In this document: piece after piece, positions 9,471 through 62,362 of the stretch | Layout of the letters: each line of letters begins with the position of its first letter | Position numbering within the stretch: the first letter of the stretch is position 1 | Assembly (NCBI GenBank): GCA_025998875.1 | Contig: AP024675.1 | Coordinates: forward strand, 1,273,549-1,337,548 | DNA from: Bacteroidota bacterium | GTDB taxonomy: Bacteria > Bacteroidota > Rhodothermia > JANXDC01 | Reading direction: 5' to 3' | DNA length: 64,000 nucleotides | Notes under the pieces: model-generated | What the model was told of the DNA's origin: nothing | The model's input: only the letters and a program-made list of their open reading frames with translations | Databases searched by the model: none | Position numbers and translations under genes: made by a program

Positions 9471-10204
9471 TAGCGGTTCAAGGCCTGCAGAAGTGGCGGG
9501 GCGATCGCCACGTACTGCGCGGGGTGAGCTTTCAGGTGCCCGAGGGCACCGTGCTCGGCGTGATCGGGGCTTCCGGAAGCGGCAAGACAACCCTGCTGCG
9601 TTGTCTTATGGGGCTGGAGCCCTTCGAGGCGGGCTCTGTATCCTGGCGGGAGATACAGCTCCAGGGAGGGCTTCCGGAGTCGGTCTGGCGTCGTCAGCGC
9701 GATCAATGGCGCCGTCATGTGGGTATGATTTTTCAGCATCTGTACCTGTTCCCTCACCTCACCGTGCTGGGCAACCTCATCGAGGCCCCGGTCCGTGTGT
9801 TGCGCATGCCGGTCCCGGAGGCCGAAGCGCGTGCCCGGCAACTTCTGGCATGGTTCGGGCTGGAGGGATTTGCCCATCGCTATCCGGCCTCGCTTTCCGG
9901 CGGGGAACAGCAGCGCGTTGCCATCGCCCGTGCGCTCATGATGCGCCCGGATGTCCTGTTGCTCGATGAGCCCACCAGCGCCCTCGATCCTGTGCGGTCA
10001 GCCGACGTGCGGGCCCTGCTCCGAAAGTACGTCTCTGAGGGGCATACGATGATCATCGTCTCCCACGCGATCGGTTTTTTGCGGGGGCTGGCCGATTACC
10101 TGCTCTACCTGCAGGAAGGCGAGGTGGTAGAATACGGGCCGGCAGAGGCCGTGCTTCTGGCCCCGCAGGATCCCCGCACACAGGCTTTTCTGCGCTACGC
10201 CTGA
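9467..10204 (+). CDS. Amino-acid ABC transporter ATP-binding protein
   Basis: Walker A GASGSGKTT, ABC signature LSGGEQQRVAIARAL; start set at ATG 9467 overlapping upstream stop (ATGA). Confidence 0.85.
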   Translation: MIAVQGLQKWRGDRHVLRGVSFQVPEGTVLGVIGASGSGKTTLLRCLMGLEPFEAGSVSWREIQLQGGLPESVWRRQRDQWRRHVGMIFQHLYLFPHLTVLGNLIEAPVRVLRMPVPEAEARARQLLAWFGLEGFAHRYPASLSGGEQQRVAIARALMMRPDVLLLDEPTSALDPVRSADVRALLRKYVSEGHTMIIVSHAIGFLRGLADYLLYLQEGEVVEYGPAEAVLLAPQDPRTQAFLRYA

Positions 10205-42551: not shown

Positions 42552-42859
42552 GCTTTATGCGTCCTGAAACGGTGACGATAATACATCCGAGGCAAGATCC
42601 CGCTGCGTTTCCGGGGGATCGGGCCCGGTTGCAACAGGCCGCGCGCTCCTTTGAGGCGCTCTTCGTGCGCGAGGTCGTGCGCGTGCTGATGCGCGAGTTA
42701 CTCGCTAGCGGAGGTCCTGAGGTGCGCATGGTACAGGATCAATGGCTCGATGTGCTGAGCCAACAGCTTCTGCAACAACATCGCACCGGCATTGCGGAGG
42801 CCGTGCTGCGGCGATGGGCCTCCGGGCACGGTTCCGTTTCCGAGGAGATCCAACCGTGA
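42548..42859 (+). CDS. Rod-binding protein (FlgJ N-terminal domain only, no muramidase domain)
   Basis: ARSFEALFVREVVRVLMRE resembles the FlgJ N-domain FEAMFLQMMLKSMR; 103 aa. Confidence 0.6.
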   Translation: MSFMRPETVTIIHPRQDPAAFPGDRARLQQAARSFEALFVREVVRVLMRELLASGGPEVRMVQDQWLDVLSQQLLQQHRTGIAEAVLRRWASGHGSVSEEIQP

Positions 42860-43374
42860 ATCCCTCCTTCCAGGCCATAGAGATCGCCTCCTGGGAACAT
42901 CTGCTGGGGCTCCTGCGGCAGGAGTGCGCCCAGCTGGAGATTCTAAAGACGACGCTGGAAGAACAACTGGAGGCGTTGCGCCGAATCGACCTGGAGGCGC
43001 TGGATCGCTGTGTGGAGGCGGAAAACGCCGTGCTGTTCCTGTTGCATCGCATCGAGCGCCAACGGCGAGAGCTGTTGCGCCACATGGGGACGATGCTGGG
43101 GCTGGAGACGGAAGAGATCTCCTGCGAGTGGTTGCTGGAGGGCGCCCCGGAGCGCTTCGGCAATCAGCTCCGGTCTCACCTGCTGAAGCGGCGTATGTTG
43201 CTGGAAGGCGTGCTGGCATGTCAGGTCCGCGTGCAGAAGGTGCTCGAATATGCCCAGCAGCTGCTGCGGGATCGGTATCGGGAGATCGCCCCTCCGGGGG
43301 CTGTAATCGCCTACGATCGCACCGGATCGCGGGCCGGAGCCGTGGAGGCAAGCTGGATCGATCAGACCGCATAA
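42856..43374 (+). CDS. FlgN-like flagellar chaperone
   Basis: GTG start overlapping upstream stop; helical Leu/Glu/Arg-rich 172-aa protein immediately upstream of flgK. Confidence 0.45.
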   Translation: MNPSFQAIEIASWEHLLGLLRQECAQLEILKTTLEEQLEALRRIDLEALDRCVEAENAVLFLLHRIERQRRELLRHMGTMLGLETEEISCEWLLEGAPERFGNQLRSHLLKRRMLLEGVLACQVRVQKVLEYAQQLLRDRYREIAPPGAVIAYDRTGSRAGAVEASWIDQTA

Positions 43375-43378
43375 CGCG

Positions 43379-44755
43379 ATGGCCGGGATCAACAACCTCT
43401 TCGAGCTCAGCAAACGCGCGCTGCTGGCCTACCAGGGTGCGATGAACACGGTGGGCCACAACGTGGCCAACGCGCAAACCCCGGGCTACTCGCGCCAGCG
43501 TGTGGATCTGCGCCAGAGCGGGGTACAGGAGGGGCGCTGGTATCTGGGTCTGGGTGTGCGTCTGGAGGGCGTCGAACGGTTGCGGGATCGGTTTCTGGAG
43601 ACCCAGATCCTGGAGCAGACGGCGCGCTGGGGGCGCTTTTCGCGGGAGCGCGCGCTACTGGAGCGCCTGGAAGGGCTGTTCTTGCCACGCACCGAGGGGG
43701 GGCTGGAGGCGGCTTTCGAGCGCTTCTGGAACGCCTGGAACGACCTGGCCGCTCAGCCCGACAGCCTGGCCGTTCGAGGCGAGGTGCGCGAGGCCGCGCG
43801 CGCCCTGGTCCACCTCTTCCACAGCCAGGATCGCTATCTGCAAACGCTCGGGGAGCAGGCGCTCCAAGAAGCCCGACAGAAGGTCGATCGCGTCAATGAG
43901 CTCCTCGGGCAGATCGCCCGGATAAACCAGCAGGAGCATACCAACCGCCTGCAGGGAGTGGTGGATAACACCTTGCTCGATGAGCGGGATCGGCTGGTGC
44001 GGGAGCTGGCCGGATTGGTGGAGCTCACCGCCCAGACCGACCCCCGAACGGGTATGCTCGTGCTCTTCAGCGGGGGGCTCGCCCTCGTTCAGGGAGAAAA
44101 GGCCGAGACCCTGGAATTCGATGCCGACCCCGCAAGGGCGACCTTCTCGCTTCGGCTACGGAATGCGCAGGTGGCCTTCCGTCCCGCCCACGGGGAGCTG
44201 GGGGGGCTTAGGGAATTCCTGCAGGATACCCTTCCCGAACTGCGGGCCCGGTTGGATACCCTGGCCGGAGAGCTTGTTGCGGCGGTAAACACCCTGCATA
44301 TGGGCGGGTTTACTCTGGATGGACAGACCGGGATCGCCTTCTTTGACCCCTCCGGCACCACTGCGGCCACCATCGAGCTGGACTCAGCCGTACAGGGGGA
44401 TGTTAGCCGCATCGCGGCCGCTGACAGGCCCGATGAGCCGGGCAATAACGCCGTAGCGCGTGCCATAGCCGGTCTGCGGCTACAGCGGTGGCTTGACTCT
44501 GGGCTGGCCACACCGGGGGAGTTTCTCTCCTCCCTTTATGGTCTGGTCGGCTCCCGAAGCCAGCAGGCCCGCGCCCGGGCGGATGCGCAGCAGGCCATTC
44601 TGGATCATCTGCAGACACTGGGTGAGGCTATCTCCGGAGTGTCGCTCGATGAGGAAATGACCCACCTGATCCGCTTCCAGCAGGCCTATGGAGCCGCAGC
44701 GCGGGTGTTGCAAACGGTACAAGAGATGGTAGAGACGCTGTTGAGCCTGAAGTAG
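43379..44755 (+). CDS. flgK: Flagellar hook-associated protein 1 (FlgK)
   Basis: N-terminal rod/hook family motif; C-terminal conserved helix; 458 aa. Confidence 0.8.
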   Translation: MAGINNLFELSKRALLAYQGAMNTVGHNVANAQTPGYSRQRVDLRQSGVQEGRWYLGLGVRLEGVERLRDRFLETQILEQTARWGRFSRERALLERLEGLFLPRTEGGLEAAFERFWNAWNDLAAQPDSLAVRGEVREAARALVHLFHSQDRYLQTLGEQALQEARQKVDRVNELLGQIARINQQEHTNRLQGVVDNTLLDERDRLVRELAGLVELTAQTDPRTGMLVLFSGGLALVQGEKAETLEFDADPARATFSLRLRNAQVAFRPAHGELGGLREFLQDTLPELRARLDTLAGELVAAVNTLHMGGFTLDGQTGIAFFDPSGTTAATIELDSAVQGDVSRIAAADRPDEPGNNAVARAIAGLRLQRWLDSGLATPGEFLSSLYGLVGSRSQQARARADAQQAILDHLQTLGEAISGVSLDEEMTHLIRFQQAYGAAARVLQTVQEMVETLLSLK

Positions 44756-44765
44756 GAGCTCTCCC

Positions 44766-45656
44766 ATGCGCATCACCCAGGGCATATGGCATCGAGAGGC
44801 GCTTCGGCATCTGGAGCGTCTTCAGGAAGCGCTTCATGAGGTGCAGACCCGCATTGGAACAGGATACCGCATCAACCGGCCCTCCGATGATCCGGCCGCG
44901 CTCGTTATGGCCCGGCGACTGGCCCAGGAGCGCGCGTTGCGGGAAGGATACCTGCGACACATCGATTTTGCCCGCGGCTTTACCGAGGCCACCGCCGGAG
45001 CGCTGGATCGTATGCTCAACCAGCTGGCCGAGTTGAGCGAGCTGGCCACGCGCGGGGCCAGCGATGGGCTCGGCCCCGAAGAGCGCCGCTCCCTGGCCGC
45101 CCAAGCGCGCGCGCTCCTGCAGGAGCTGGTTTCCGAGCTCAACGGCCAGCACGCCGGCTGGTATCTGTTCTCCGGAACCCGGATTCATACGCAACCCTTC
45201 CTCGATGGAGGGGGAACGTATCTCTACCAGGGCAACGGAGAGGAATTGCTCCGGGATGTGGGCCCGGGAGTGACCGTTCCCCTGGGCCTTCCGGGAAACC
45301 GCATTCACGATCTGGGAGGTGGACAGACCCTGACGGGCGTAGCTCTGGGCCTTGTCGCCGCGCTCCAGTCCGGAGATCGGGCCGCCATTCAGGGGAGCAT
45401 AGGGGAGTTGGCGCGGGCCCAGGAGCATGTGCGCGCCCTGGCGGTGGAGATGGGCGCCCGGCTGAGGTGGCTCGATAGTCTGCAGGAGCGCCACCTGAGC
45501 GACATCGAACAGCTGGAGGCGCTGCGCTCCCGCCTGGAGGATACCGATTACGCGCGCGCTGCCTCGGAGCTCGAGCGGGTGCAGACCGTTTATACGGCCA
45601 CGGCGAAAGTGATCAGCTGGCGTTTGCCCCAGAGTCTGGTCGATTACCTGCGATAA
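44766..45656 (+). CDS. flgL: Flagellar hook-associated protein 3 (FlgL)
   Basis: Flagellin-like N-terminus (RPSDDPAA) and flagellin-like C-terminal helix; follows flgK. Confidence 0.75.
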   Translation: MRITQGIWHREALRHLERLQEALHEVQTRIGTGYRINRPSDDPAALVMARRLAQERALREGYLRHIDFARGFTEATAGALDRMLNQLAELSELATRGASDGLGPEERRSLAAQARALLQELVSELNGQHAGWYLFSGTRIHTQPFLDGGGTYLYQGNGEELLRDVGPGVTVPLGLPGNRIHDLGGGQTLTGVALGLVAALQSGDRAAIQGSIGELARAQEHVRALAVEMGARLRWLDSLQERHLSDIEQLEALRSRLEDTDYARAASELERVQTVYTATAKVISWRLPQSLVDYLR

Positions 45657-45666
45657 GGAGTTTGCT

Positions 45667-46278
45667 ATGACGCGTCCGGAAGAGTTACACACAGCCATCG
45701 CGCTGCTGGAGGCTGAGCACTACCAGGAGGCGCTTCCGCTCTGGAAAGCGGCTCTGGAACGCGATCCGCATGATCCGGTCGCCCTGTGGGGGTGCGGGAT
45801 CTGTCTGGAGCAGCTGGGCCAACTCCAGGAAGCGGTCCGCGTCTACGAGGCCCTGCTCGGGTCTGAAGCGCTGGAGGCCCGGTTTCGGGTCGCTATCCTC
45901 AACAACCTGGGCCTGTGCTACTTCCGTCTGGGCCGCTATGAAGAGGCCCGCTCCTGTTTCGCCTCCGCTCTGCCGGAGGATCCGTCGGCCTGTTCGGGTC
46001 GCCATCTGGCCATGACGCTGATCGAACTGGGAGCCTATACCGAAGGGGTGGATCAACTGGTGCGCACGCTGCGCCACCATCCCCAGGATGTGCCGGCCCT
46101 GCTGCTGCTGGCCGGATATCTGGAGGAGGTGGGGGCTTTCGACCGGGCGGCTACCTACTACGAGTGGGCCCGGGACGTGATCAGGGCAAACAGTCCTGAG
46201 CATCCGGATCTGCGGTTTATCGAGGCGCGCATCGAAGGCCTGGCCATCCACAGGCAGAGCACAGGGGAGCGGACATGA
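45667..46278 (+). CDS. TPR-repeat protein
   Basis: Repeated Ala/Leu/Tyr-rich 34-residue helical pattern. Confidence 0.6.
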   Translation: MTRPEELHTAIALLEAEHYQEALPLWKAALERDPHDPVALWGCGICLEQLGQLQEAVRVYEALLGSEALEARFRVAILNNLGLCYFRLGRYEEARSCFASALPEDPSACSGRHLAMTLIELGAYTEGVDQLVRTLRHHPQDVPALLLLAGYLEEVGAFDRAATYYEWARDVIRANSPEHPDLRFIEARIEGLAIHRQSTGERT

Positions 46279-47648
46279 AGCCGCGCATCAGCCTGGCCAT
46301 GATTACGCGCAACGAAGAAAAAAACCTGCCCGAGGCGCTCCGTTCCGTCCAGGGCGTGGTCGATGAGGTGGTGATCGTGGATACAGGCTCAACGGATGGG
46401 ACGATCCGCATCGCGCGCGCCTGGGGTGCTCGGGTCCTTTCCGTACCCTGGGAGGAGGATTTCGCGCGGGCCCGAAACGCGGCGCTGCCCCACATCCGCG
46501 GCGACTGGTTGCTGTGGATGGATGCCGATGAGCGGCTGGTCCCCGAAAGCCGGCCGTTTTTTGATCTGTTGCCGGAGCAGGCAGATCCTCCGATCGGATT
46601 CCGGGTATACCTGCGCAACTGGACCGAGGACCGGCGCTCCTTTGATCTCTCCTGGGCGATGCGGCTGGTACGCCTCTTTCCGGGCCTTGCCTTCACGGGT
46701 CGCGTGCACGAACAGCTCTCCAGCGCCCTGGCCCGACACGGGGGTGTGGTGCTCGACAGTCCGGTAGTGCTCGATCACTTCGGCTACGGGCTTTCCGCAG
46801 AACAGATGCGGCTCAAGTTGGAGCGCAACTATCGGCTCCTGGCGCAGCAGATCAAAGAAGAGCCTCACAACGCCTATGCGCACCTGACCATGGGGCTCAA
46901 CCGCCTGAGCGCCGGAGATTTCGGGGCGGCTGTACGCCATTTTCGCCTGGCGCTTCGGCTTCGCCAGGGTCTGGATTCGATGCTCCTGCTAGCCGCGCAC
47001 AACGGACTGGCCCGGGCGTATCTGGAGCAGGGAGAACTGGAGCAGGCCTACCGGTGGGCACGCCGTTCCTTGCGTTTGGAGAAAAGCCAGGCCTGTCCCT
47101 ATTTGGTTCTGGGAGATATCTATCGGCGCCGGGGACAGCGCAAGCGGGCCTATGCGGTCCTGCAGAGCGCCCTGCAGTATGGTCCAGAGCGCTCCCGGGC
47201 TGCCTATGACATAAATCCCCATCGACCGGCGCTGTACGAGACGATCCTCGGGCTGGCCCTGGAGCTGGGCCGATACGAAGAGGCGCGCCTTTTTCTGGAG
47301 CGGCTGTGGGTGCTCAAGCCGGAGCGGGCGATCGCCGAGTGGCGCTATCGCATGGCCGTCGCATGCGGTGCGCCCGCACAGCAGGTGCTGGAGGCCTACG
47401 AAGCCCTGCTTGGCTTTCTAGAGAGGGAGGCAGAAGCCGATGCCCCCCTGCACCTGCTGTTAGCGGAAGGGCGGCTGGCAGAGGCCGCGGGGGGTTACGA
47501 AATGGCGCTATGCCGGTTTCCAAATGCTCCGCTCCTGCTGCGTCGTCTAGCCGGGGTTCGAGTCAAGCTGGGCGATCTGCGTGGGGCACATGCTTTGCTG
47601 AGCGAGGGTTTGCCGGTTGCCGGAGCAATCAAGGAGGTCCGTGCATGA
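46275..47648 (+). CDS. Family-2 glycosyltransferase with C-terminal TPR domain
   Basis: GT2 N-terminus SLAMITRNEEKNLPEAL...VVDEVVIVDTGSTDGT, DxD-like WMDADE; C-terminal TPR repeats; ATGA coupling to both neighbours. Confidence 0.75.
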   Translation: MKPRISLAMITRNEEKNLPEALRSVQGVVDEVVIVDTGSTDGTIRIARAWGARVLSVPWEEDFARARNAALPHIRGDWLLWMDADERLVPESRPFFDLLPEQADPPIGFRVYLRNWTEDRRSFDLSWAMRLVRLFPGLAFTGRVHEQLSSALARHGGVVLDSPVVLDHFGYGLSAEQMRLKLERNYRLLAQQIKEEPHNAYAHLTMGLNRLSAGDFGAAVRHFRLALRLRQGLDSMLLLAAHNGLARAYLEQGELEQAYRWARRSLRLEKSQACPYLVLGDIYRRRGQRKRAYAVLQSALQYGPERSRAAYDINPHRPALYETILGLALELGRYEEARLFLERLWVLKPERAIAEWRYRMAVACGAPAQQVLEAYEALLGFLEREAEADAPLHLLLAEGRLAEAAGGYEMALCRFPNAPLLLRRLAGVRVKLGDLRGAHALLSEGLPVAGAIKEVRA

Positions 47649-48130
47649 ACACGGCCGAAGTTTCCATCCCCTTTGCCAGCCGCGAAGCCTTTCTGGGCCT
47701 GGACCGGCGTCAGCAGGCCACCGAAGAGCTGGTGGAACTGGTGGCCTTTTCCGTCTCGGGCCAACCCCTGGCCGTTCCCATGGAGAACGTTCAGGAGGTG
47801 ATCTCCTGGCGCGAGGTCACGCGCGTGCCGCTGGCGCCGTCGTACTATCGGGGCGTGATCAACCTGCGCGGCACGATCGTGCCCGTGCTGGATACGGCCC
47901 TTCGGCTGGGTCTGCCGGGGGGTCGGGTGGAGCAGCTGGTCGTTCTGCAGACGAGCCGGGGGCTGGTGGCGTTGACCATAGACGAGACGCGGGATGTGTT
48001 GCGCGTGCCCCCCGAGGCGCTCGAGTACGATGTGGAAAGGGCAACCTATACGGATGGCCGTTTCTTTCAGGCTGTCTGCCGGTCAGGTGAGCACCTGTAC
48101 CTTGTCCTAAACGGGGAGGCGCTGCTGTAG
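47645..48130 (+). CDS. cheW: Chemotaxis coupling protein CheW
   Basis: 161-aa CheW-like domain (VAFSVSGQPLAVPMENVQEV); start ATG 47645 overlaps upstream stop. Confidence 0.8.
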   Translation: MNTAEVSIPFASREAFLGLDRRQQATEELVELVAFSVSGQPLAVPMENVQEVISWREVTRVPLAPSYYRGVINLRGTIVPVLDTALRLGLPGGRVEQLVVLQTSRGLVALTIDETRDVLRVPPEALEYDVERATYTDGRFFQAVCRSGEHLYLVLNGEALL

Positions 48131-49033
48131 ATGCCCGGCATGGAACCCGATATCACGGCACAGAGGGTGCGCTGGGAGGGGTTTTCTATACCTCCCCTGT
48201 CGGCCACGTTCGCCGATATGGTGCGCCTGATGAACCAGCCCGAGCTGATCGAGGTCCGGCGCGTGGTGGAGATCATCGGCCGCGATCCGGCTGTGACGGC
48301 CCGCATTTTACGCATCGTAAACTCCGCCTATTACGGGCTCCGGGCCAGAGTGGGTACGGTCGAGCACGCCGTGGTGCTTCTGGGGGCGGAAGCCACCGTG
48401 GGGTTTGTTATCGGCATGGGCATAATCAACATGCGGCGGCATTTCCATCCAACGATGCGCCATCTGGTTCTGCACCTCATTCGGCATCTGGTTGCCACAG
48501 GCGCCCTGGCCGGGCAGATCGCCCAGCTCGCCCACCTTGCCACCGCCCAGGGCAGGGGACTGGAGTTTACCGCCGGGCTCCTGCACGATCTGGGCAAGAT
48601 CGTGCTCCTGTACAACGTCCCGGACAGGTATCAAACCCTTTGCGGCGCCTCCCGACAGGAGGCCTGTGCGGAGGAGGAGAGCGCCTTCGGGCTCAATCAC
48701 GCCGAGCTGGGGGCGCTTCTGGCCGAGCAGTGGGCCTTTCCGGAAGCGCTCGTCGAGGCCATTCGCTGGCATCACTGCCCTGAAGAGGCCCCCCCAGCGT
48801 ATCGGCCTATCGCCCAGGTGGTCCACCTTGCCGATACGGCCGCCTACCGAATGGGACTGGGGTTTCATGCCGGAGAGGAGGCGATTGCGGACAGTGAGCT
48901 TGCCAAAAGGTGGGAAAAAGCCTGTGGCCCGAACGTGCCAGCCTTCGAGGAACTATTCCGGCATTTGGAATCTGGAAAGCCCCAGTTGCACCAGTTCGTC
49001 GATACCTTGCTCGGATCGGATAGGGAACCGTGA
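48131..49033 (+). CDS. HDOD-domain signalling protein
   Basis: HD-related output domain pattern (ILRIVNSAYYGL..., HDLGKIVL, HAELGALLAEQW). Confidence 0.7.
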   Translation: MPGMEPDITAQRVRWEGFSIPPLSATFADMVRLMNQPELIEVRRVVEIIGRDPAVTARILRIVNSAYYGLRARVGTVEHAVVLLGAEATVGFVIGMGIINMRRHFHPTMRHLVLHLIRHLVATGALAGQIAQLAHLATAQGRGLEFTAGLLHDLGKIVLLYNVPDRYQTLCGASRQEACAEEESAFGLNHAELGALLAEQWAFPEALVEAIRWHHCPEEAPPAYRPIAQVVHLADTAAYRMGLGFHAGEEAIADSELAKRWEKACGPNVPAFEELFRHLESGKPQLHQFVDTLLGSDREP

Positions 49034-53108: not shown

Positions 53109-53744
53109 ATGGAGAAGAACGGACAAAACGTGCAACAGCAGGTACTGGAGCGCATCGAGCAACTCAAGCATTTGTTCTTGCTGGGGCAGGAGATCCTGCC
53201 GTTTCTGGAGCAGTTGTTCATCTTTCTGAAAGAAATCGCCCCCTTGATGAGCGAGCTCTCGCGATCCGTTTTTGAAGGCTCGTTGCGCATGCCGGAGGCC
53301 ACTAACGAGATCGAGTCCATACACGCCAAAACCTCAGACGCCACGTTCCGTATTCTGGCCCGTACCGAACAGCTGCTCGCCGACCTGGAGACCCTCCGTA
53401 TGGAGCTGGCCTCCGGAGAAAACACCGGACAGTGGGCCGAAAAGGTCGACCGGGCCCACGAGGCCGTGATGGATATCATGACCTCCCTGCAGTTTCACGA
53501 CATCGTGACGCAGAAGCTGGCCGCCGTACGGGATGTGCTCACGCGCGTGCAGAATCAGCTCATCGAGCTTTTTGAGAGCTTCCATCGGCTGGAAATCGAC
53601 TCCAACCTCAAGCGCAACCTTATGGCCGCCATGGGCATTACCGAGGAGGAACTGCAGCGCCTTGTGGCACTGCGCAATCACCAACCCGCGGCGAAACCGG
53701 AGGTGAGCATTTCGCAGGCCGATATCGATGCGCTCTTTGCCTGA
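53109..53744 (+). CDS. CheZ-like chemotaxis phosphatase (remote homolog)
   Basis: Helical 211-aa protein directly after cheY; LQFHDIVTQKL matches CheZ active-site segment FQDLTGQVI (D-x3-Q). Confidence 0.5.
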   Translation: MEKNGQNVQQQVLERIEQLKHLFLLGQEILPFLEQLFIFLKEIAPLMSELSRSVFEGSLRMPEATNEIESIHAKTSDATFRILARTEQLLADLETLRMELASGENTGQWAEKVDRAHEAVMDIMTSLQFHDIVTQKLAAVRDVLTRVQNQLIELFESFHRLEIDSNLKRNLMAAMGITEEELQRLVALRNHQPAAKPEVSISQADIDALFA

Positions 53745-53820: not shown

Positions 53821-55293
53821 ATGGCTACGGGTTCCCGAAGGGTTCTCATTGTTGAGGATGAGCCCTTGCTCAATACGTATCTCAAAAAACTGCTCACCCG
53901 GCACGCTTTCGAGGTGGACACCTTCATCGACCCCGAACAGGCCCTGGAGGCCTTCAGCAGGCAACCGTATGATCTGGTGATCACAGATTACAAGATGCCC
54001 AATCTGACCGGTGAGGATGTGCTTCGTCGGGTCAAGGAAATGAAACCGGATGTGGGCGTTATCGTGATCACCGCATACGGGACGATTCAGAACGCGGTTC
54101 GCTGTATCCAGTTGGGGGCTTTCGATTACATCACCAAGCCGTTTCCTCCGGATGCGCTCATCGAACGCATACAGGCCTTCTTTGCCCAGCGGGAATCTGC
54201 CCCGCTGGAAGGGGAGGGTAGGGAGTCGAGACGTCGGCGATCGAGCAGAAGCGAATACGGGGCGGTTTTCATCGGCGAGCATCCCAAGATCGTGCAGCTG
54301 CGTCAGCTGGCCCGTCAGCTGGCGCAGAACGATGCCCCCGTGCTCATTCAGGGGGAAAACGGTACGGGCAAGGAGGTACTGGCGCGTTTCATCCACGCCC
54401 ACAGCCGACGTGCCCGGGGCCCCTACGTGGCCATCAACTGCGCCAATTTGCCGCGGGAGCTGGTCGAAAGTACCCTGTTCGGGCATAAAAAAGGGGCTTT
54501 TACCGGCGCCATCGAGGATGCCTCCGGAGCTTTCGAGCAGGCCCGAGGGGGTACGTTGCTGCTTGATGAAATCACGGAGATCGAGCTGCCTATCCAGGCC
54601 AAGCTGCTGCGCGTGCTCCAGGAGCGGGAGTTTACCCGCGTGGGGAGCCATGAGCCCATTGTGGCCGATGTGCGCGTGATCGCCACCACGAACCGGGACA
54701 TTCACGAGGCCATCGCGCGGGGGCTGTTCCGTGAGGACCTGTATCACCGCCTGAGCGTCTTCCCGATCGTGATCCCTCCCCTTCGGGAACGGGCTTCCGA
54801 CATCCCGGTTCTGGCGCGCCACTTCGTGCAGAAGTATACCGCTCTCTATAACCTGCCCGAAAAGGAGCTCGCTTCCGATCTGGTGGAGGCGCTGCTGGCC
54901 TACGACTGGCCGGGAAACGTGAGACAGCTGGAAAACCTCATCCACCGGGGTGTGTTGCTCTCCGGAGATCGGAGGCGGATCGAGGTCGAGGACGTCTTTT
55001 CCGAGTATTTCTCCGACCGCGTACTGTTCCGCGCGGTGCGGCGTGGTTCGGAGGAAAAAACCCGCACCCTCGAGCCCGTAGCCGGGGATGCTTCTGATGA
55101 GCCTTCGGCCTCGGCGCTTGTTTCGGAGCCGGATGTGCCGCTAAAACCCCTCGAGGAGGTGGAGCGTTTGCTGATTCTGAAGGCGCTGGCGGAGGCCAAC
55201 CAGAATCAGCAGCGCGCCGCCGCCATGCTCGGCATCAGCGCGCGCACGATCCGCAACAAACTCCGCCAGTACCGACAGCAGGGTTTACTCTAA
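53821..55293 (+). CDS. Sigma-54-dependent response regulator (FleR/FlgR-like)
   Basis: N-terminal receiver; AAA+ Walker A GENGTGKE; GAFTGA sigma-54 contact motif; C-terminal HTH. Confidence 0.85.
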   Translation: MATGSRRVLIVEDEPLLNTYLKKLLTRHAFEVDTFIDPEQALEAFSRQPYDLVITDYKMPNLTGEDVLRRVKEMKPDVGVIVITAYGTIQNAVRCIQLGAFDYITKPFPPDALIERIQAFFAQRESAPLEGEGRESRRRRSSRSEYGAVFIGEHPKIVQLRQLARQLAQNDAPVLIQGENGTGKEVLARFIHAHSRRARGPYVAINCANLPRELVESTLFGHKKGAFTGAIEDASGAFEQARGGTLLLDEITEIELPIQAKLLRVLQEREFTRVGSHEPIVADVRVIATTNRDIHEAIARGLFREDLYHRLSVFPIVIPPLRERASDIPVLARHFVQKYTALYNLPEKELASDLVEALLAYDWPGNVRQLENLIHRGVLLSGDRRRIEVEDVFSEYFSDRVLFRAVRRGSEEKTRTLEPVAGDASDEPSASALVSEPDVPLKPLEEVERLLILKALAEANQNQQRAAAMLGISARTIRNKLRQYRQQGLL

Positions 55294-55773
55294 CGGTTCC
55301 CGACGCAGCTGCCGCAGGATGCGTTCGGCCAGCGCCCGTCGTACCTCGATCCGATCATAATAGCCGCCCTGGAGCCGCTCTACTATGAGCTCCGAATCAG
55401 CGGGGCCCGAGGTCTCCAACTCACGGCTCTTCTCCGAACTCCGCACCAGCTCCTCGGCCAGCTGACGGATAAAATCGTCCCGGTTATAGAAGCCTTCTTG
55501 CAGGCGGGCCTGGATTGTCCTCAGATGGGCCTGTCGCTCCCGATCGAGGGCGTACAGCGCCTGACGGGCGAACTGGACTGTGCGGGCTTCGGGCTCCTGC
55601 CAGGCGCGGATCTCCAGGCGTACGGCCTCCGGGGAAGCGCCTGTCTCCGGGGGCTCATCGGTGGGCCTGGTTGCGGAGGGTTCCGCGGTGCGGACTTTGC
55701 CGGGCGAGCCTCCCCGAATCCCGGTGGACGGGGAGGGTTGTGCGGCGTCGGGAAGTAGCTTGCGAATATCCAT
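55285..55773 (-). CDS. Hypothetical protein, disordered N-terminus with duplicated C-terminal helix motif (possible FlgM-like anti-sigma-28)
   Basis: Pro/Ser/Thr-rich N-terminus then two copies of a G-aromatic-Y...D...I..LAE..L segment loosely resembling FlgM C-terminus; last gene of filament operon. Confidence 0.3.
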   Translation of the reverse strand: MDIRKLLPDAAQPSPSTGIRGGSPGKVRTAEPSATRPTDEPPETGASPEAVRLEIRAWQEPEARTVQFARQALYALDRERQAHLRTIQARLQEGFYNRDDFIRQLAEELVRSSEKSRELETSGPADSELIVERLQGGYYDRIEVRRALAERILRQLRREPLE

Positions 55774-55776
55774 GGC

Positions 55777-56124
55777 CTACCCTTCCCACTCTAGCCATCC
55801 CCCATCGGATGATCGAGGCCGATAGCGGTCCTGGGCCTCCGCGTAACGGTGAAGCTCCGCCAAAGCGGCCTCACAGGCGGCCAGCTGTTCTCGTAAGCGG
55901 CTTTCGAGCTCCCGCTCCTTCTGGGCGATCCGTTCTAGGCAATCGCGCATCTCTTGGTCTTCGCTTTGGCCGGTCTGCGGCTCCCGAAGGAGTTCCTGCA
56001 ATTCCCGTTCCCTTTCTTCGAGCAGTTCGAGCGCGCCCGTGGTATCATGAGTGTGCAAGGCGTTCAGGATCTGCTCCGTAAGGTGCTCGATGCGCCGCAG
56101 GCGCGCCGTTGCTCTCATGGTCAT
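55777..56124 (-). CDS. Hypothetical coiled-coil protein (possible FliT-like chaperone)
   Basis: 115 aa, Glu/Leu/Arg-rich heptad pattern; location downstream of flaG/fliD/fliS; overlaps flaG 3' end by ~80 nt so start is uncertain. Confidence 0.3.
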   Translation of the reverse strand: MTMRATARLRRIEHLTEQILNALHTHDTTGALELLEERERELQELLREPQTGQSEDQEMRDCLERIAQKERELESRLREQLAACEAALAELHRYAEAQDRYRPRSSDGGWLEWEG

Positions 56125-56533
56125 CCCCCTGGAGGCTGCTCAGCAGGTTCTGCAGGCTCTGGACCAGCTCCAGAAACTCCGTGGGCGGAATCTCCCGGAT
56201 CACCTCTCCCGTGTCCGGATCGATCAGGCGCGTGATGATACGGCCTGTTTCCGGATGCACCTGAAAGGTAATCGCGATCCGATTGGCCCGCAAGACCATA
56301 TCCCGCTGCCGGAGCCATTCCTGCAGATGCCGGATCTGTAGGCCCAGCTCGGAAAGCTCAACGGCTTCCTGAAGCCCGGCGTTGTTCTGCCGCTCCGGGG
56401 TATTCGAGAGCTCGGATTCGGAAAAGTGCGTCGATCGATCCGAAGCCGTCGCCTCTGAGGGGGCGACCGGACGTACGGGGGGAAGGGGGGCCGGCAGGGG
56501 TTGTATGCGTTCTATGGGTGCGAGGTTGGCCAT
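56045..56533 (-). CDS. flaG: Flagellar protein FlaG
   Basis: ITFQVHPETGRIITRLIDPDTGEVIREIPPTEFLEL matches FlaG core. Confidence 0.7.
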   Translation of the reverse strand: MANLAPIERIQPLPAPLPPVRPVAPSEATASDRSTHFSESELSNTPERQNNAGLQEAVELSELGLQIRHLQEWLRQRDMVLRANRIAITFQVHPETGRIITRLIDPDTGEVIREIPPTEFLELVQSLQNLLSSLQGDDHESNGAPAAHRAPYGADPERLAHS

Positions 56534-56549: not shown

Positions 56550-58028
56550 TTATCGGTGGATCGTCAGTTGCGCCATGTAGGCCTGCAAGGCGCTCATCTG
56601 GGATTCGGCTTTGGAGAGCGCATCCCGCAGTTGAGCAAACTGCCGGCGCAGTTGCTCTTCGCGCACCTTCATGCGCGCCTCGAAGTCCGATATCTGTTTG
56701 TTCGTGCGCCCAAGCTGAGCGTCTATGCTCTCCTGCATGCGCTGCAGGGTGCCATCCTGCCGCCGGTAGCTATCGACCAGCGCGTTGAGCCGGGTGGCCA
56801 GCCCATCTGGGCCGGCAAAGAAGGCCCGCACAGCCTCCGGATCCTCCTCCAGCGCCTGTGCCAGCCGGGCCGGATGGGAGATCGTCAGCCGTCCTTCCCG
56901 GTCGGCGGTGATGCCCAGCGCGGCGAGCGTGCTGTAGGTGCCGGAGACGCGCTCCAGCGCGCTTCGCCGCAGACTGCCGAGCAGGCCCAGCACAAGGCCA
57001 TCGCCCGCCAGCGGGCCACGGGTCCGGGAGGCGGAGTTTATGCTCGTGTGGGTGCGCAGCGTGGAGAGCGCCTCGTTGTAGGCGCGCAAAAAGTCCTCTA
57101 TCGATCGGCGCGCCGCGGCCCCATCGCGGGAAACGGTTACGGTGACCTCCTGGGTCGTGGGGGCCAGGAGGGTAAGGGTGAGCCCTTCGATGGCATCGGA
57201 AACGGTGTTCCCGTCCCGGTAAAACGGCAGGCCGTTTATCGTGAAGGCCGCATTCAAGGACGAGGAGGCCGCATCTGTTCCCGGATCGGCCAGGTATCCT
57301 CCGGAGGATCCGGATGCCAGCCCGTTTCGGGAAAGCTCCAAGGCGCCGAGCAGGCCACCTGCGGAATCGATAAAGCCAAGCCGATATGTATACCCCGTCT
57401 GGGAACTGCTCAGGAGCAGACGGACCGTTCCCCTGTGCTCCTGCACCACGGAGACAGTGGGCTTCTCGGAGCGCAACAACAGGCCATCGGATACGGCCTG
57501 ATCGAGAGCACCTGCAATGGCCGCGGCGATCTCCTGCAGGATGGTGGCGTTATCCGATCCGGTGGGATTGAGCGTGACGGCGATTTGCAGACGCCCTTCG
57601 GGGTCGGATTCGGTGGGATGGGCCACTTCGAGCCAGAAGGTCTGGGGACCGTTTGCGTCGAAGAAGGCGCGCAGCTCAGATCCGCTCCGACTGTACTGCT
57701 GCGAGACGCGTGTGTCGGCCCGTGCCAGGCGCTGGACCGAAACGGTATACGTGGCCGGTGAGGCCAGTTGCGAAGCGCTGACCCGCAGGAGCTCAGGGTG
57801 AGAGGAGCTGGCGGTTTTGGCCACGAAGGCCCCACCTTGAGGATCGAGGAGGTTGTTCAGCTGGGTCTGCAGCGCACTCAAGCGGCTTTGCAGCTCAGCG
57901 AGCGCGGAGCGGCGCGTCTCCAGACGTTTGCGCTGCTCGAGGAGTCGGTTTTTGGGCGTGCTTTCGTACTGGATGATCTTCTCGATCAACTGCTCATAGG
58001 GATCGTTGAGCAACTGGTTGATCAGCAT
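56550..58028 (-). CDS. fliD: Flagellar filament cap protein FliD
   Basis: N-terminal and C-terminal coiled-coil FliD regions; start placed at ATG 58026-58028, 2 nt after fliS stop (track ORF begins at GTG 58058). Confidence 0.8.
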   Translation of the reverse strand: MLINQLLNDPYEQLIEKIIQYESTPKNRLLEQRKRLETRRSALAELQSRLSALQTQLNNLLDPQGGAFVAKTASSSHPELLRVSASQLASPATYTVSVQRLARADTRVSQQYSRSGSELRAFFDANGPQTFWLEVAHPTESDPEGRLQIAVTLNPTGSDNATILQEIAAAIAGALDQAVSDGLLLRSEKPTVSVVQEHRGTVRLLLSSSQTGYTYRLGFIDSAGGLLGALELSRNGLASGSSGGYLADPGTDAASSSLNAAFTINGLPFYRDGNTVSDAIEGLTLTLLAPTTQEVTVTVSRDGAAARRSIEDFLRAYNEALSTLRTHTSINSASRTRGPLAGDGLVLGLLGSLRRSALERVSGTYSTLAALGITADREGRLTISHPARLAQALEEDPEAVRAFFAGPDGLATRLNALVDSYRRQDGTLQRMQESIDAQLGRTNKQISDFEARMKVREEQLRRQFAQLRDALSKAESQMSALQAYMAQLTIHR

Positions 58029-58030
58029 GG

Positions 58031-58339
58031 CTATCGCTTGAGCACGTGGTTTTTCCACTGCTGGCGTAGTTCGGCCAGCACTTCACGTACGGCCTCGAAA
58101 TGGCCATTGTGCGTCTGATGCAGACAGTACATGTAGAGCTCGAAGAACGTACGGGCCACCTCCTCGTAGTCGAAATTCAGGCTGTTGATCAGCTCCCGGA
58201 GTACGAGGCGCAGCCGGTCACGGTCGCGGCGCGCACAGGCCTGTAGCCCGAGGTCATAGAGGGTAAGGACTAATTCTTCCGGGGAGGCAGACAGAATTTC
58301 CTGCTGTTTGTACTGTCGGGCGTACTGCTGGGCGAGCAT
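58031..58339 (-). CDS. fliS: Flagellar export chaperone FliS
   Basis: 102-aa helical bundle protein with FliS-like core (LTLYDLGLQACARRD...FELYMYC). Confidence 0.75.
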   Translation of the reverse strand: MLAQQYARQYKQQEILSASPEELVLTLYDLGLQACARRDRDRLRLVLRELINSLNFDYEEVARTFFELYMYCLHQTHNGHFEAVREVLAELRQQWKNHVLKR

Positions 58340-58430: not shown

Positions 58431-59309
58431 TTAGCGGAACAGGGAGAGCACGGCCTGGGGATTGGCGTTGGCCTGCGCCAGGGCAACGGTGGCCGTCTGC
58501 TGCAGGATCTGCAACTTGGCCACGCGCAGCTGCTCCTTGGCAAAATCGGCATCAAAGACCCGGCTGCGAGCCCCCTCCGTGTTCGTGATCTGCGCGGAGA
58601 GCATGTTTTCCTTGACCGTGAGCCGCGTCTGGAAGGCGCCCAGGTCCCGGATGGCCGCGCTTACCGTGGAAATTGCCTGGTCAATAGAGGCCAGCGCCGC
58701 CGAGAAGCTGGCCGCCGACGACGATCCGGTGAGCGCACCCGATCCGGTGACCACCCCGCTGAGCAGACCCACGGACTGGAAGGTCGTGGTGCTGCCGCTG
58801 GAGGTGATGGAGAAGGTCACGGTGTCGGAGTTGTCCGGACCCACGTGGAACTGGAGGGTGCTCGAGGAAGAGTTGTAGTCCTTCAGCAGGGCGCGTCCGT
58901 TGTACTTGGTCTGCTCGACGATCTGGTCGATCTCCCGACCCAGGGCCTGGATGTCGGCCACGATGGCGGTGCGCTCCTCTTGCGCCATGGAATCATTGGC
59001 CCCGCGGGTGACCTTCTCCTTGATCGTCTGCAGGATGTCCATGATCGACTGCAGACCGCCCTCGGCCACCGAGAGCATGTTCTTGGCGTCCCCGATGTTG
59101 TCCAGGGCCGCGCTCAGCCCCCGAATGCGGGCCTCGAGCTTCTTGCCCAGGGCATAGCCGGCCGAATCGTCCTCGGCCGAGTTGATCCGATAGCCCGTGG
59201 CCAGACGCGTCTGCCGCACGCCCAGCTCCCGGTTGATGCGAAAGAGCGAATTGAGCGCGCCCAGGGACTGAGCATCGGAATTGATGCGCGTCAGATCTCC
59301 GAACGGCAT
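58431..59309 (-). CDS. fliC: Flagellin
   Basis: Conserved flagellin N-terminal (LRINSAEDDSAGYA) and C-terminal (QILQQTATVALAQANANPQAVLSLFR) helices; short Ser/Thr-rich central region. Confidence 0.9.
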   Translation of the reverse strand: MPFGDLTRINSDAQSLGALNSLFRINRELGVRQTRLATGYRINSAEDDSAGYALGKKLEARIRGLSAALDNIGDAKNMLSVAEGGLQSIMDILQTIKEKVTRGANDSMAQEERTAIVADIQALGREIDQIVEQTKYNGRALLKDYNSSSSTLQFHVGPDNSDTVTFSITSSGSTTTFQSVGLLSGVVTGSGALTGSSSAASFSAALASIDQAISTVSAAIRDLGAFQTRLTVKENMLSAQITNTEGARSRVFDADFAKEQLRVAKLQILQQTATVALAQANANPQAVLSLFR

Positions 59310-59575: not shown

Positions 59576-62362
59576 ATGGGGAATGAATTTGGCCTGCTCG
59601 GCTGTGTATGTCGAGGAAAGGAAGGCGTTATGTCGGCTGATCGGCGGCTGTACCGGCGTTATCCTGCCCGGGGACCCTGGCCAGAGGTGAACGTGTCCGT
59701 GATCGTAGTGAACTACAACCGAGCCTCTTGCCTGCAGGATTGCTTCGATAGCCTGTTTCATCAAACATATCGAAATTTTGAAATCATTCTTGTAGATGAC
59801 GGAAGTTCGGATAATTCCAGAGATATTTTATTGAATATTTTTGAAAAAAATAGGAAAGACAAAAAAATTCCTTTTAGAATGATAATTCAACAAAATAGTG
59901 GACATCCTTCTTATCCCATAAATAGAGCTATGAGGCTTGCGAGAGGAAAGTATATACTTTTTCTTTCGTCAGACGACATGATACATCATAAGTGTATAGA
60001 AATATTTGTAAAAATTTTAGATGAAATGCAAGAATATGGATATGTTTATTGTGATAGAGTGGATTTCAAAGATAAAAACATTTTAAAAATAGTAAAATCA
60101 AATTATTTTGATGCTGATAAGTTAATTTTTGAAAATTTTGTTTCTTATTGTTCTATGTTTAGAAAAGAAATATTTAAAAAAGTTAAAAAAATTAAAAAAG
60201 TTGGCTTTGAAGATTGGAATTTATGGATTGAATTTCTAAAGTTTGGTTATCATGGATTTTATGTTCCTGAGCCTCTGTTTCTGTATCGAATAAACGAAGA
60301 TGGATTGTTTTCGAAAAATATAGAAGAAAAAGAAAAGAATATTGCCCAGCTGATCCGGGAAAATACAGTGTTATACCACCCGGAGGTGCTCAACTGGGCG
60401 TTCAAGGTGCTGGGCGAAAGGCAGGAACCTCCGCTCTTCAGCATTATCGTGCCTACCCGCAACAGGCCGGAGTGGCTTCGGGAGGCCCTTCGGAGCATTC
60501 AGCAGCAGACCGTGGCCAATTTTGAGGTGCTCGTCGTCAACGATGGGGGGCAGGATGTCTCCCACGTGGTCGCATCCCTCCAGGACAGTCGATTTCGATA
60601 CATCGCGCTTCCGGAGCGGCGGGGACTGGCTGCCGCCCGCAACCGGGGCCTTGAGGAGGCGCGCGGCCGGTATGTGGCTTTCCTGGATGATGATGATCGC
60701 TTCCTGCCCCATCATCTGCAAACGGCCTGGATCGCCCTCTCCGAGGGGGCGCGCGTGGTCTACACGGACGCGCTGCGCGCCGTCTGGGCACCCCTGCCCC
60801 GGGGAGGGGAAGCGATTGTCGATCTCTGTCTGCCGTATCGGCTTGACTTCCATCCCGATCGGCTTCTACTGGGCAACATCGCGCCCGTAAACTGCTTCGT
60901 GCTGGAGCGCGAACTCATTGAGCGATACGGCCCCTTTGATGAGTCCTTGCCCGTGCTGGAGGACTGGGAGTTCTGGTTGCGCCTGTCGCGGCGGGTGCGC
61001 TTTCGGCGCATCCCTGAGCCCACGGTGTGGGTCAACTGGCGGCCCCACGGCCAGAACCTGACCCACAGCCGGGAGCAGGATTTCGCCCGGGCCCGTGCCC
61101 GCATTCAGGCCCGATACCGTCGGGCCCTTGTCCGGCTTGCGCCCGAGAGACGGCAGGAGATCCTCCACGAGTTCCTTCGCATCTGGTCTCGGGATGGTGT
61201 GCTTCCTGAACCGCCCCTGCTCTCCATTGTGATCCTGGCACACAACCAATTTCCTCATACCCGAGCCTGTCTGCAGTCCGTGCTCACCCATACTCCGCCC
61301 TGGTCGTTCGAATGCATCGTCGTCGACAACGGCTCCACGGACGAAACGCCCCGCCTGCTTCCCCGGTGGGCAGAGGAGCATCCACAGATTCGATACATCC
61401 GCCTGGAGGAGAACCGGGGGTTTCCGGCCGGCAATAACGTGGGGCTGGCCGCCGCCCAGGGACGCTATGTGATCCTGCTCAACAACGATACCGTCGTTAC
61501 CCCCGGATGGATCGAGCGCCTGCTGCTGCCCGCCGTAACCGATCCCTCTGTGGGGCTCGTGGGGCCCGTTTCCAATCGCGTCTCCGGCAGGCAACAGCTC
61601 CCGGCCGTCGCCTACGACACCGAGACCCTCAAGGGGTTGGAGGCTTTCGCCTTGAAACGGGCGCGCTGGTATGCGGGCCGAAAGCTTGAAGTCCGACGTC
61701 TGGTGGGCTTTTGTCTGCTCATCCGACGCGAGTTGCTCGAGCGCATCGGTGGGCTGGATGAGCGCTTCGGTATGGGCAACTTCGAGGACGACGATTACTG
61801 CCTGCGCGCCGCTCTGGCCGGTTTCCGGGCCGTCGTGGCGCTGGATTGTTTCGTGCATCATACCGGAAGCCAGACTTTCCGCGCCCTATCCATAGATTAC
61901 GGCCGATTGCTGCTGGAGAACTGGGAGAAGTTCAAACATAAATGGCATCTGCCCGCCGATCTTCCCTATGGGCATCCGTATCCGTTTCCCGAGCGGCCCT
62001 TCGATCCGTCCCGGGATTACATCCCGCTACCCCGATGGGAGCGGCCGCTGGAGGACTTCGTGGCCGGTGTGCAACAAGCCCTTCTGCAGGGCGACGCGCT
62101 CCGAGCCGAGCATCTGGCCTACGAGGTCACTCGAGTCCATCCCCGAAACCCCTACGCCTGGTTGTTGCGCGCCTTGGTGGCCCGGCTGGACCGTAGATGG
62201 GATGAGGCTCTTGAGGCCGTGCGATATTCCCTTCGGCTCCAGGAGACCCCGGAAGCGCTCCAGGAACTGCGCCGTCTGCTCGAGGGCACTGGCGTGGGCA
62301 AGCAAGTGCCGCCGTATAGGGAAGAGCCCTGCCCTGAGCAGGCGGCCCTCAAGCACCTCTGA
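59576..62362 (+). CDS. Multidomain glycosyltransferase: three tandem GT2 domains plus C-terminal TPR-like region (928 aa)
   Basis: Three GT2 cores: (1) VSVIVVNYNR...ILVDDGSSDNS...SSDD; (2) FSIIVPTRNR...VVNDGGQD...DDDD; (3) LSIVILAHNQ...VVDNGSTDET...NND; start may be ATG 59630. Confidence 0.8.
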   Translation: MGNEFGLLGCVCRGKEGVMSADRRLYRRYPARGPWPEVNVSVIVVNYNRASCLQDCFDSLFHQTYRNFEIILVDDGSSDNSRDILLNIFEKNRKDKKIPFRMIIQQNSGHPSYPINRAMRLARGKYILFLSSDDMIHHKCIEIFVKILDEMQEYGYVYCDRVDFKDKNILKIVKSNYFDADKLIFENFVSYCSMFRKEIFKKVKKIKKVGFEDWNLWIEFLKFGYHGFYVPEPLFLYRINEDGLFSKNIEEKEKNIAQLIRENTVLYHPEVLNWAFKVLGERQEPPLFSIIVPTRNRPEWLREALRSIQQQTVANFEVLVVNDGGQDVSHVVASLQDSRFRYIALPERRGLAAARNRGLEEARGRYVAFLDDDDRFLPHHLQTAWIALSEGARVVYTDALRAVWAPLPRGGEAIVDLCLPYRLDFHPDRLLLGNIAPVNCFVLERELIERYGPFDESLPVLEDWEFWLRLSRRVRFRRIPEPTVWVNWRPHGQNLTHSREQDFARARARIQARYRRALVRLAPERRQEILHEFLRIWSRDGVLPEPPLLSIVILAHNQFPHTRACLQSVLTHTPPWSFECIVVDNGSTDETPRLLPRWAEEHPQIRYIRLEENRGFPAGNNVGLAAAQGRYVILLNNDTVVTPGWIERLLLPAVTDPSVGLVGPVSNRVSGRQQLPAVAYDTETLKGLEAFALKRARWYAGRKLEVRRLVGFCLLIRRELLERIGGLDERFGMGNFEDDDYCLRAALAGFRAVVALDCFVHHTGSQTFRALSIDYGRLLLENWEKFKHKWHLPADLPYGHPYPFPERPFDPSRDYIPLPRWERPLEDFVAGVQQALLQGDALRAEHLAYEVTRVHPRNPYAWLLRALVARLDRRWDEALEAVRYSLRLQETPEALQELRRLLEGTGVGKQVPPYREEPCPEQAALKHL
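59760..60350. other. AT-rich compositional island (roughly 30% GC by eye) inside the glycosyltransferase ORF, in frame
   Basis: Visibly Lys/Asn/Ile/Phe-rich AT-rich codons across ~590 bp flanked on both sides by high-GC coding sequence of the same reading frame. Confidence 0.85.

Follow-up and report, generated by a model that had tools for sequence, protein, structure and literature searches.

What do a stand-alone tetratricopeptide repeat (TPR) protein and a glycosyltransferase do inside a flagellar operon, between the hook-associated genes and the chemotaxis genes? The question is raised by a 64,000-nucleotide stretch of a Bacteroidota bacterium genome (assembly GCA_025998875.1, contig AP024675.1), here called the window, in which a 203-amino-acid (aa) TPR protein and a protein combining a family 2 glycosyltransferase domain with TPRs (GT2-TPR) are encoded between flgL and cheW. 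The original prediction had tied the pair to glycosylation of flagellar components or to a flagellum-associated polysaccharide. Our analysis indicates that GT2-TPR is probably a soluble, cytoplasmic, GmaR-like protein O-glycosyltransferase acting on flagellin before export, with the TPR protein as helper and a triple-GT2 protein extending the glycan. This reading is computational rather than biochemical: homology, domain architecture, synteny and island context were computed here, and from them we infer which protein is the acceptor, which sugar is donated, in what order the enzymes act and what the small TPR protein does.

The GT2-TPR enzyme and its kinship with GmaR

Both genes lie on the + strand. 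The TPR gene occupies 45667–46278 and matches Pfam TPR families only (TPR_16, E 1.9e-23), and the GT2-TPR gene occupies 46275–47648 and encodes 457 aa with a Glycos_transf_2 match at aa 6–91 (E 3.6e-20) followed by TPR families at aa ~197–447. The catalytic GT2 (GT-A) domain corresponds to 46275–46862 (aa 1–196), and the C-terminal TPR/helical-repeat domain (TPR_19, TPR_2 and others) to 46863–47648, which covers aa ~197–445 and also takes in a disordered tail plus the stop codon. Hidden Markov model searches with Pfam thus bore out both predicted domain assignments. Both reading frames also hold up as genes: orthologs of essentially the same length stand at the same position in the nearest relative, and GC content at third codon positions (GC3; 0.75 for the TPR gene, 0.73 for GT2-TPR) is at the level of real genes in this genome. 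Placement between flgL and cheW was confirmed by matches to TIGR02550 and PF01584.

Among all PDB sequences, entry 22ao, the glycosyltransferase (GT) domain of GmaR, matches GT2-TPR best (E 4e-24, query aa 1–196), with 33% identity over 196 aa by BLASTP (E 8e-28); ThuS and SunS, which are glycocin S-glycosyltransferases, come second (E ~1e-13), and ordinary GT2 enzymes reach only ~1e-2. GmaR of Listeria is a flagellin O-linked N-acetylglucosamine (O-GlcNAc) transferase of 637 aa, built of GT, TPR, linker and anti-repressor domains (PMC9638930). That a flagellin glycosyltransferase is the closest solved relative of the GT domain lends computational support to the predicted role in glycosylating flagellar components.

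The window protein carries a nucleotide-sugar motif (D36-T-G-S-T-D41), a DxD motif (D83-A-D85), H145-E146 and H168-x-G-Y. Residues D36, T37, G38, S39, D41, W59, F63, N68, W78, D83, D85, H145, H168, G170 and K181 are invariant in both a 24- and a 14-sequence alignment of the family, while further positions, T40, A84, E146 and Y171, show no variation in the 14-member alignment and are conserved in the 24-member one (T40 and E146 at ≥90%). GmaR carries nearly all of the family-invariant residues, and the set DTGSTD, DxD, HEQ and HxGY is present in both proteins. Conservation of all catalytic-type residues argues for an active enzyme.

In the AlphaFold2 model of GT2-TPR (pLDDT 91.5, pTM 0.84), a GT-A fold leads into a helical solenoid at residues 175–444. 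Foldseek matched the model over its full length best to SunS and ThuS (E ~1e-17) and next to TPR domains, among them that of O-GlcNAc transferase (OGT). The protein is basic (isoelectric point, pI, 9.3) and lacks a membrane or hydrophobic segment (maximum 19-residue Kyte–Doolittle mean 1.03) as well as a signal-like N-terminus, the first β-strand of the GT fold in the model beginning at residue 5.

The likeness to GmaR therefore covers a ~190-aa N-terminal GT-A domain with the same motifs, TPRs directly after it, a soluble cytoplasmic location, a position among flagellar genes and a short flagellin (~290 aa). It does not extend further. The window protein lacks the linker and the MogR-binding anti-repressor domain that define GmaR in the strict sense (457 versus 637 aa), its TPR part has no specific similarity to that of GmaR, and GmaR 141–637 chains gave no match at E ≤0.01, only the GT domain of GmaR being matched. 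Since GT2-TPR stops after its TPR part and matches GmaR in the GT domain only, it is, judged from sequence, GmaR-like in its enzyme half only. It most likely belongs to the known GT2-TPR (GmaR-like) kind of flagellin glycosyltransferase, without the anti-repressor domain of GmaR. The window enzyme also differs in its company, a TPR protein encoded separately and a multi-GT2 enzyme nearby; this suggests that an oligosaccharide is made and not a single GlcNAc.

GmaR itself is bifunctional, serving both as glycosyltransferase and as anti-repressor of MogR (PMC9638930, PMC3150276), and TPR proteins are generic protein–protein scaffolds. The pair might thus be mainly regulatory, with GT2-TPR or the TPR protein sequestering a flagellar regulator or chaperone and so coupling expression or export order to the assembly state; one surveyed locus even has fliW, which encodes a flagellin-binding regulator partner, in the slot of the TPR gene. 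We consider this improbable, given the missing linker and anti-repressor domains of a 457-aa protein matched by the GmaR GT domain alone (PMC9638930), the conserved catalytic-type residues, and the lack of a MogR-like gene among the window open reading frames (ORFs) scanned.

Could the enzyme instead build a flagellum-associated or cell-envelope polysaccharide, the second role originally proposed? GT2 enzymes mostly make polysaccharides and lipid-linked glycans, and the automatic Joint Genome Institute (JGI) name for the protein is 'glycosyltransferase involved in cell wall biosynthesis'. Nevertheless, this alternative is highly improbable: GT2-TPR is soluble, no flippase, polymerase, lipid-carrier or export genes were found nearby among the scanned ORFs, weak NCBIfam matches to polysaccharide GTs fall far under their cutoffs, and the closest characterised relatives, on the GmaR/SunS branch of GT2, act on proteins and peptides. 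That part of the prediction was accordingly set aside. SunS and ThuS (PDB 7MSN, 7MSK, 7MSP) share with the window enzyme a GT-A domain followed by C-terminal helical repeats that recognise the peptide substrate. They differ in context, as the window holds flagellar genes and no glycocin precursor, transporter or thiol–disulfide genes; the immediate neighbours are flgL and cheW, and the SunS-family profile TIGR04195 scores only 53 bits against a cutoff of 350.

Flagellar linkage across the GT2-TPR family

The GT2-TPR family is large. A protein search listed 308 homologs at E ≤1e-5 among the candidates scored, and a genome scan with the 14-sequence alignment yielded at least 583 confirmed relatives. 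The only close relative among the matches listed (65% identity) belongs to metagenome-assembled genomes (MAGs) labelled Rhodothermia/'Bacteroidetes'; a metagenome scan for further close relatives returned the source genome itself and distant matches only. Gene order in this relative is identical (flgK, flgL, a 206-aa TPR gene, GT2-TPR, cheW, HDOD, cheR), and the ATGA coupling between the TPR gene and GT2-TPR is kept. Amino acid identity between window and relative is 59–64% for the TPR and GT2-TPR genes and 68% for flgK and flgL, with ratios of nonsynonymous to synonymous differences (pN/pS) of 0.54 for the TPR gene, 0.36 for GT2-TPR and 0.31–0.34 for flgK/flgL (flgL 0.34). By these estimates, the divergence and constraint of the pair resemble those of flgK and flgL.

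Beyond this relative, we surveyed 80 further loci from named genomes among the matches listed, searching their 10-kb flanks with profiles built from the flagellar proteins of the window. Late flagellar genes lie within 10 kb in 25 of the 80 loci and within 500 bp in 16, and fliC is the nearest flagellar gene in 18 of the 25; in the first pass, a 26th locus, L027, also gave flagellar matches. For comparison, we estimate that late flagellar genes would turn up in a few percent of 20-kb stretches taken at random from a flagellated genome. Linkage declines with similarity rank, from 11 of the 20 most similar homologs to 8, 5 and 1 in the successive groups of 20. Orthologs devoid of flagellar linkage were the outcome that had been named as speaking against the predicted role; what was found is a nearest ortholog that keeps the flgL–TPR–GT–cheW order and a majority of the 20 most similar homologs near late flagellar genes.

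The linked loci span at least eight phyla and include Desulfacinum, Marinimicrobia, Bacteroidota, Ignavibacteria, Acidobacteriota, Actinomycetota, Gemmatimonas and Bacillota (among the Bacillota loci surveyed are L012, L025, L045, L054 and L074). GT2-TPR just after flgK–flgL recurs in L006, L037, L040 and L094. The last of these (GCA_031362565.1) reads flgF-G-A-H-I, one further gene, flgN, flgK, flgL, fliW, GT2-TPR and, further on, fliC, fliS and fliD; another locus runs GT9, GT2-TPR, fliC, fliS, fliD. The fliW gene of L094, at 9537–9986, encodes a flagellin-binding protein and fills the slot of the 203-aa TPR gene in the window, as a positional analogy only. Flagellin-adjacent GT2-TPR genes are often tandem paralogs or fusions of 1000–1360 aa with two to three GT2 domains plus TPRs (L021, L032, L033, L050, L004, L026, L074), which points to frequent duplication and fusion in the family.

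No flagellar gene was within reach in the cyanobacterial and archaeal loci or in large glycosyltransferase islands (L003, L095). Some homologs sharing the invariant motifs come from cyanobacteria without flagella (L044, L046, L061, L066, L076, L079, L080) and from archaea (L029, L051, L083); other proteins must be the targets of the family in these organisms. The cyanobacterial pilin glycosyltransferase Ogt was considered as an explanation for the cyanobacterial homologs and rejected, being a GT41 enzyme of a different family.

The enzyme kind is already known, with GmaR established experimentally and GT2+TPR proteins used in Clostridium to predict flagellin GTs (PMC13317340), and a specialist would not be surprised by it. 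The Clostridium and other Bacillota proteins share the domain architecture, and their role is deduced in the same way from linkage to flagellin genes (PMC13317340). Theirs lie in hypervariable islands flanking fliC, whereas the window enzyme lies in an flgF–flgL/che operon, with the island split in two places. The differences from the known kind are this operon position, the distribution of glycosylation genes over two sites, the missing regulatory half of GmaR and the extra TPR protein. Characterised examples are few in the literature searched, chiefly GmaR in Listeria, and the survey suggests that GT2-TPR beside fliC or flgKL commonly marks flagellin glycosylation in many phyla. If confirmed, the window enzyme would take the range of GmaR-type flagellin glycosylation beyond Bacillota, to a thermophilic Rhodothermia-like lineage, and would provide structural and glyco-engineering studies with a compact, thermostable GT2-TPR enzyme that lacks the regulatory domain found in Listeria.

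Flagellin, the triple-GT2 protein and the glycosylation island

The single flagellin of the window (fliC, 58431–59309, − strand, 292 aa; Pfam Flagellin_N and Flagellin_C) contains a short central stretch, residues 141–210, with 39% Ser/Thr, compared with 19% in the whole protein and ~10% in FlgK and FlgL. Flagellin is the probable acceptor of the GT2-TPR enzyme. Divergent from fliC lies a triple-GT2 gene (59576–62362, + strand), which is the 'first' glycosyltransferase implied by the original prediction when it called GT2-TPR the second. Its 928-aa product (910 aa in gene callers, which start at aa 19) contains three Glycos_transf_2 stretches (E 1.1e-88) and a short C-terminal TPR-like region, and is probably the glycan-extending enzyme. 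The gene is sharply mosaic: its first GT2 module (59576–60475) has 25–45% GC, the remainder ~65% and the genome 63%, and this low-GC module caused a GC3-based gene picker to miss it.

The relative has a collinear ortholog of the triple-GT2 gene (54% identity) in its own fliC-adjacent island, where FdtA, a DegT-type aminotransferase and a formyltransferase are encoded between fliC and the triple-GT2 gene. These three functions together are typical of the synthesis of N-formyl sugars of the dTDP-3-amino-3,6-dideoxyhexose type (dTDP, deoxythymidine diphosphate). The low-GC tract there is ~4 kb long (26–40% GC) and takes in these three genes as well (L091, 5700–9600). The fliC-adjacent region bears the marks of a variable flagellin glycosylation island, and the low-GC tract suggests that this island was horizontally acquired and that part of it was lost in the window.

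Because the pair directly follows flgK–flgL and is not beside fliC, and because GT2-TPR takes this position in four surveyed loci as well, the enzyme might glycosylate another exported axial protein (FlgK, FlgL, FliD or the hook) instead of or besides flagellin. The composition of the candidate acceptors speaks against this, as FlgK and FlgL have only about a quarter of the Ser/Thr density of the flagellin centre. So does the survey: fliC is the neighbour in most flagellum-linked loci, and L037, L040 and L094 have a flagellin gene further downstream, which makes a post-flgL position also a pre-fliC position. With flagellin being the substrate of the characterised relative GmaR (PMC9638930), we give an axial acceptor other than flagellin only a small chance.

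On the favoured reading, in which flagellin is the acceptor, the N-terminal GT-A domain would take a nucleotide sugar with the help of a DxD-bound metal, while the C-terminal TPR solenoid would hold unfolded or chaperone-free flagellin in the cytoplasm. The first sugar would be transferred to Ser/Thr residues of the short Ser/Thr-rich centre before flagellar type III export; the triple-GT2 protein would then probably extend the glycan, and the 203-aa TPR protein would most likely assist acceptor recognition or hand-over. Placement after flgK–flgL would supply the enzyme while the hook–filament junction is being built, just ahead of flagellin export.

Several observations weigh against this reading. 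No flagellar genes lie close to about two thirds of the family loci, cyanobacterial and archaeal ones among them, and specificity for flagellin is therefore not a trait of the whole family. A neighbour-joining tree of 101 GT domains is star-shaped past the 65% ortholog and resolves no flagellar clade. The GT2-TPR gene lies ~11 kb from fliC in this genome and is not adjacent to it. Dedicated sugar-synthesis genes were not found in the window, where the three sugar genes of the relative are absent. Finally, the 203-aa TPR protein has generic TPR similarity only and is known from two lineages only, with nothing specific to flagellin.

Downstream of fliC on the − strand follow fliS (58031–58339; Pfam FliS), fliD (56550–58058; Pfam FliD_N/C) and flaG (56045–56533; Pfam FlaG). 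Two small ORFs lie downstream of flaG on the same strand, one of 162 aa (55285–55773) and one of 115 aa (55777–56124). The former has no Pfam match, nor does a 137-aa gene near the corresponding position in the relative; the latter shows a weak FliT match (E 3e-4, below cutoff). They may encode an FlgM-like and an FliT-like protein, respectively.

The 203-aa TPR protein and the surrounding operon

The AlphaFold2 model of the 203-aa TPR protein (pLDDT 92) consists of 11 helices forming five TPR hairpins and a capping helix. The protein is acidic (pI 5.1), has no hydrophobic segment and is predicted to be cytoplasmic. Fold searches matched it to nothing but generic TPRs (consensus TPR, the TPRs of OGT and SPY, PilF, MamA), and local BLAST and phmmer comparisons with GT2-TPR homologs and their neighbours likewise found generic repeat similarity only. 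A search of a 5.8-billion-protein database, which needs shared exact words, returned two clusters, the protein itself and a 61% ortholog; the protein is lineage-restricted.

Analogy with other systems makes an accessory or adaptor subunit for acceptor recognition or hand-over its most likely role. FlmG and Maf-1 bind flagellin through their TPR domains, and a separately encoded factor, GlfM, is required by Maf-2 (PMC7591256; bioRxiv 10.1101/2023.12.03.569772). FlmG of Caulobacter and the Maf-1 and the Maf-2+GlfM systems of Shewanella and others thus resemble the window system in combining a cytoplasmic enzyme with a flagellin-binding TPR or a small cis-encoded specificity factor in flagellar loci. 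Their catalytic folds are, however, unrelated (the DUF115 domain in Maf, the C-terminal domain in FlmG), they transfer nonulosonic acids, and no Pfam match to MAF_flag10 was found at E ≤0.01 in either the TPR protein or GT2-TPR. GlfM, encoded beside Maf-2, is an 89-aa four-helix bundle, unlike the 11-helix, five-repeat protein here, whose partner is a GT2 enzyme with a TPR domain of its own; the analogy is functional only. Non-orthologous TPR-only genes also adjoin flagellum-linked GT2-TPR in Desulfacinum (L004) and a Marinimicrobia MAG (L006).

Extending the analogy, we tentatively put forward a three-part GT2-class flagellin glycosylation system as a possibility of modest likelihood: beside GT2-TPR, the 203-aa TPR protein would set site specificity or pass glycosylated flagellin to FliS and the export gate, and placement with flgKL would time glycosylation to completion of the hook–filament junction. 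Such a system would be the GT2 counterpart of Maf-2/GlfM, in a phylum where flagellin glycosylation is unstudied, and of all the parts described here, only the separately encoded TPR partner might bring a new principle.

It is rather unlikely that the TPR protein has nothing to do with glycosylation and is a TPR-type export chaperone or a functionless remnant of gene fission. This alternative draws on its small size, its acidity and sub-threshold matches to the LcrH/SycD and SctY type III secretion system (T3SS) chaperones. Such matches are expected of any TPR protein, however, and lie far under the cutoffs (35.1 versus 104.8 bits for TIGR02552, 29.7 versus 70 for NF052415); no T3SS chaperone structure appears among the top 50 fold matches, and FlgN and FliS are already encoded, plus the sub-threshold FliT-like ORF. 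Also in its favour, constraint is looser than in GT2-TPR (pN/pS 0.54 versus 0.36), and Ignavibacteriales homologs have an N-terminal TPR-like region fused to GT2-TPR; the ATGA coupling kept in the relative counts against it. Fission as such was examined and is not supported: the 203-aa protein matches the Ignavibacteriales N-terminal region weakly (independent E-value 0.003) and worse than it matches their C-terminal repeats, leaving a resemblance of architecture only.

The pair is embedded in a tightly packed + strand series: flgF, flgG, flgA, flgH, flgI, a small ORF in the flgJ position, flgN, flgK (43379–44755, 458 aa, hook-associated protein 1; Pfam FlgK_D1, E 4.7e-54), flgL (44766–45656, 296 aa, hook-associated protein 3; 190 bits to TIGR02550 against a cutoff of 127), the TPR gene, GT2-TPR and cheW (47645–48130, 161 aa; PF01584, E 2.7e-28). 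HDOD, cheR, cheA, cheB, cheY, a CheZ-like gene and a sigma-54 response regulator follow on the same strand. Each junction from flgF (38552) to cheR is at most 20 nt or overlapping. The proposed translational coupling stands for two of the three junctions around the pair, where ATGA stop/start overlaps join the TPR gene to GT2-TPR (46275–46278) and GT2-TPR to cheW (47645–47648), and fails for the third, flgL and the TPR gene being separated by 10 nt without overlap. Shine–Dalgarno-like AAGGAG/GGAG sequences precede the TPR, GT2-TPR and cheW starts, with AAGGAG lying 7 nt ahead of the ATG of the TPR gene. A scan for consensus promoters and terminators inside the operon string gave nothing above shuffled expectation. 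This packing suggests that the pair is co-expressed with flgKL.

Some neighbouring features deserve mention. The HDOD/HD-domain gene between cheW and cheR (48131–49033) is kept in the relative (L001), as is a 211-aa gene after cheY (53109–53744), whose counterpart there has a faint CheZ match only. With its listed ATG start, the flgN ORF (42742–43374) shares 118 nt with the ORF before it; in the relative, FlgN has 167 aa, compatible with a GTG start at 42868 (168 aa) in the window, where GC content is ~63%. A 2387-aa sprA gene of type IX secretion (20958–28121) shares the window with the complete flagellar/chemotaxis region, so that this hot-spring Bacteroidota/Rhodothermia-like lineage has flagellum genes together with at least one type IX secretion system gene.

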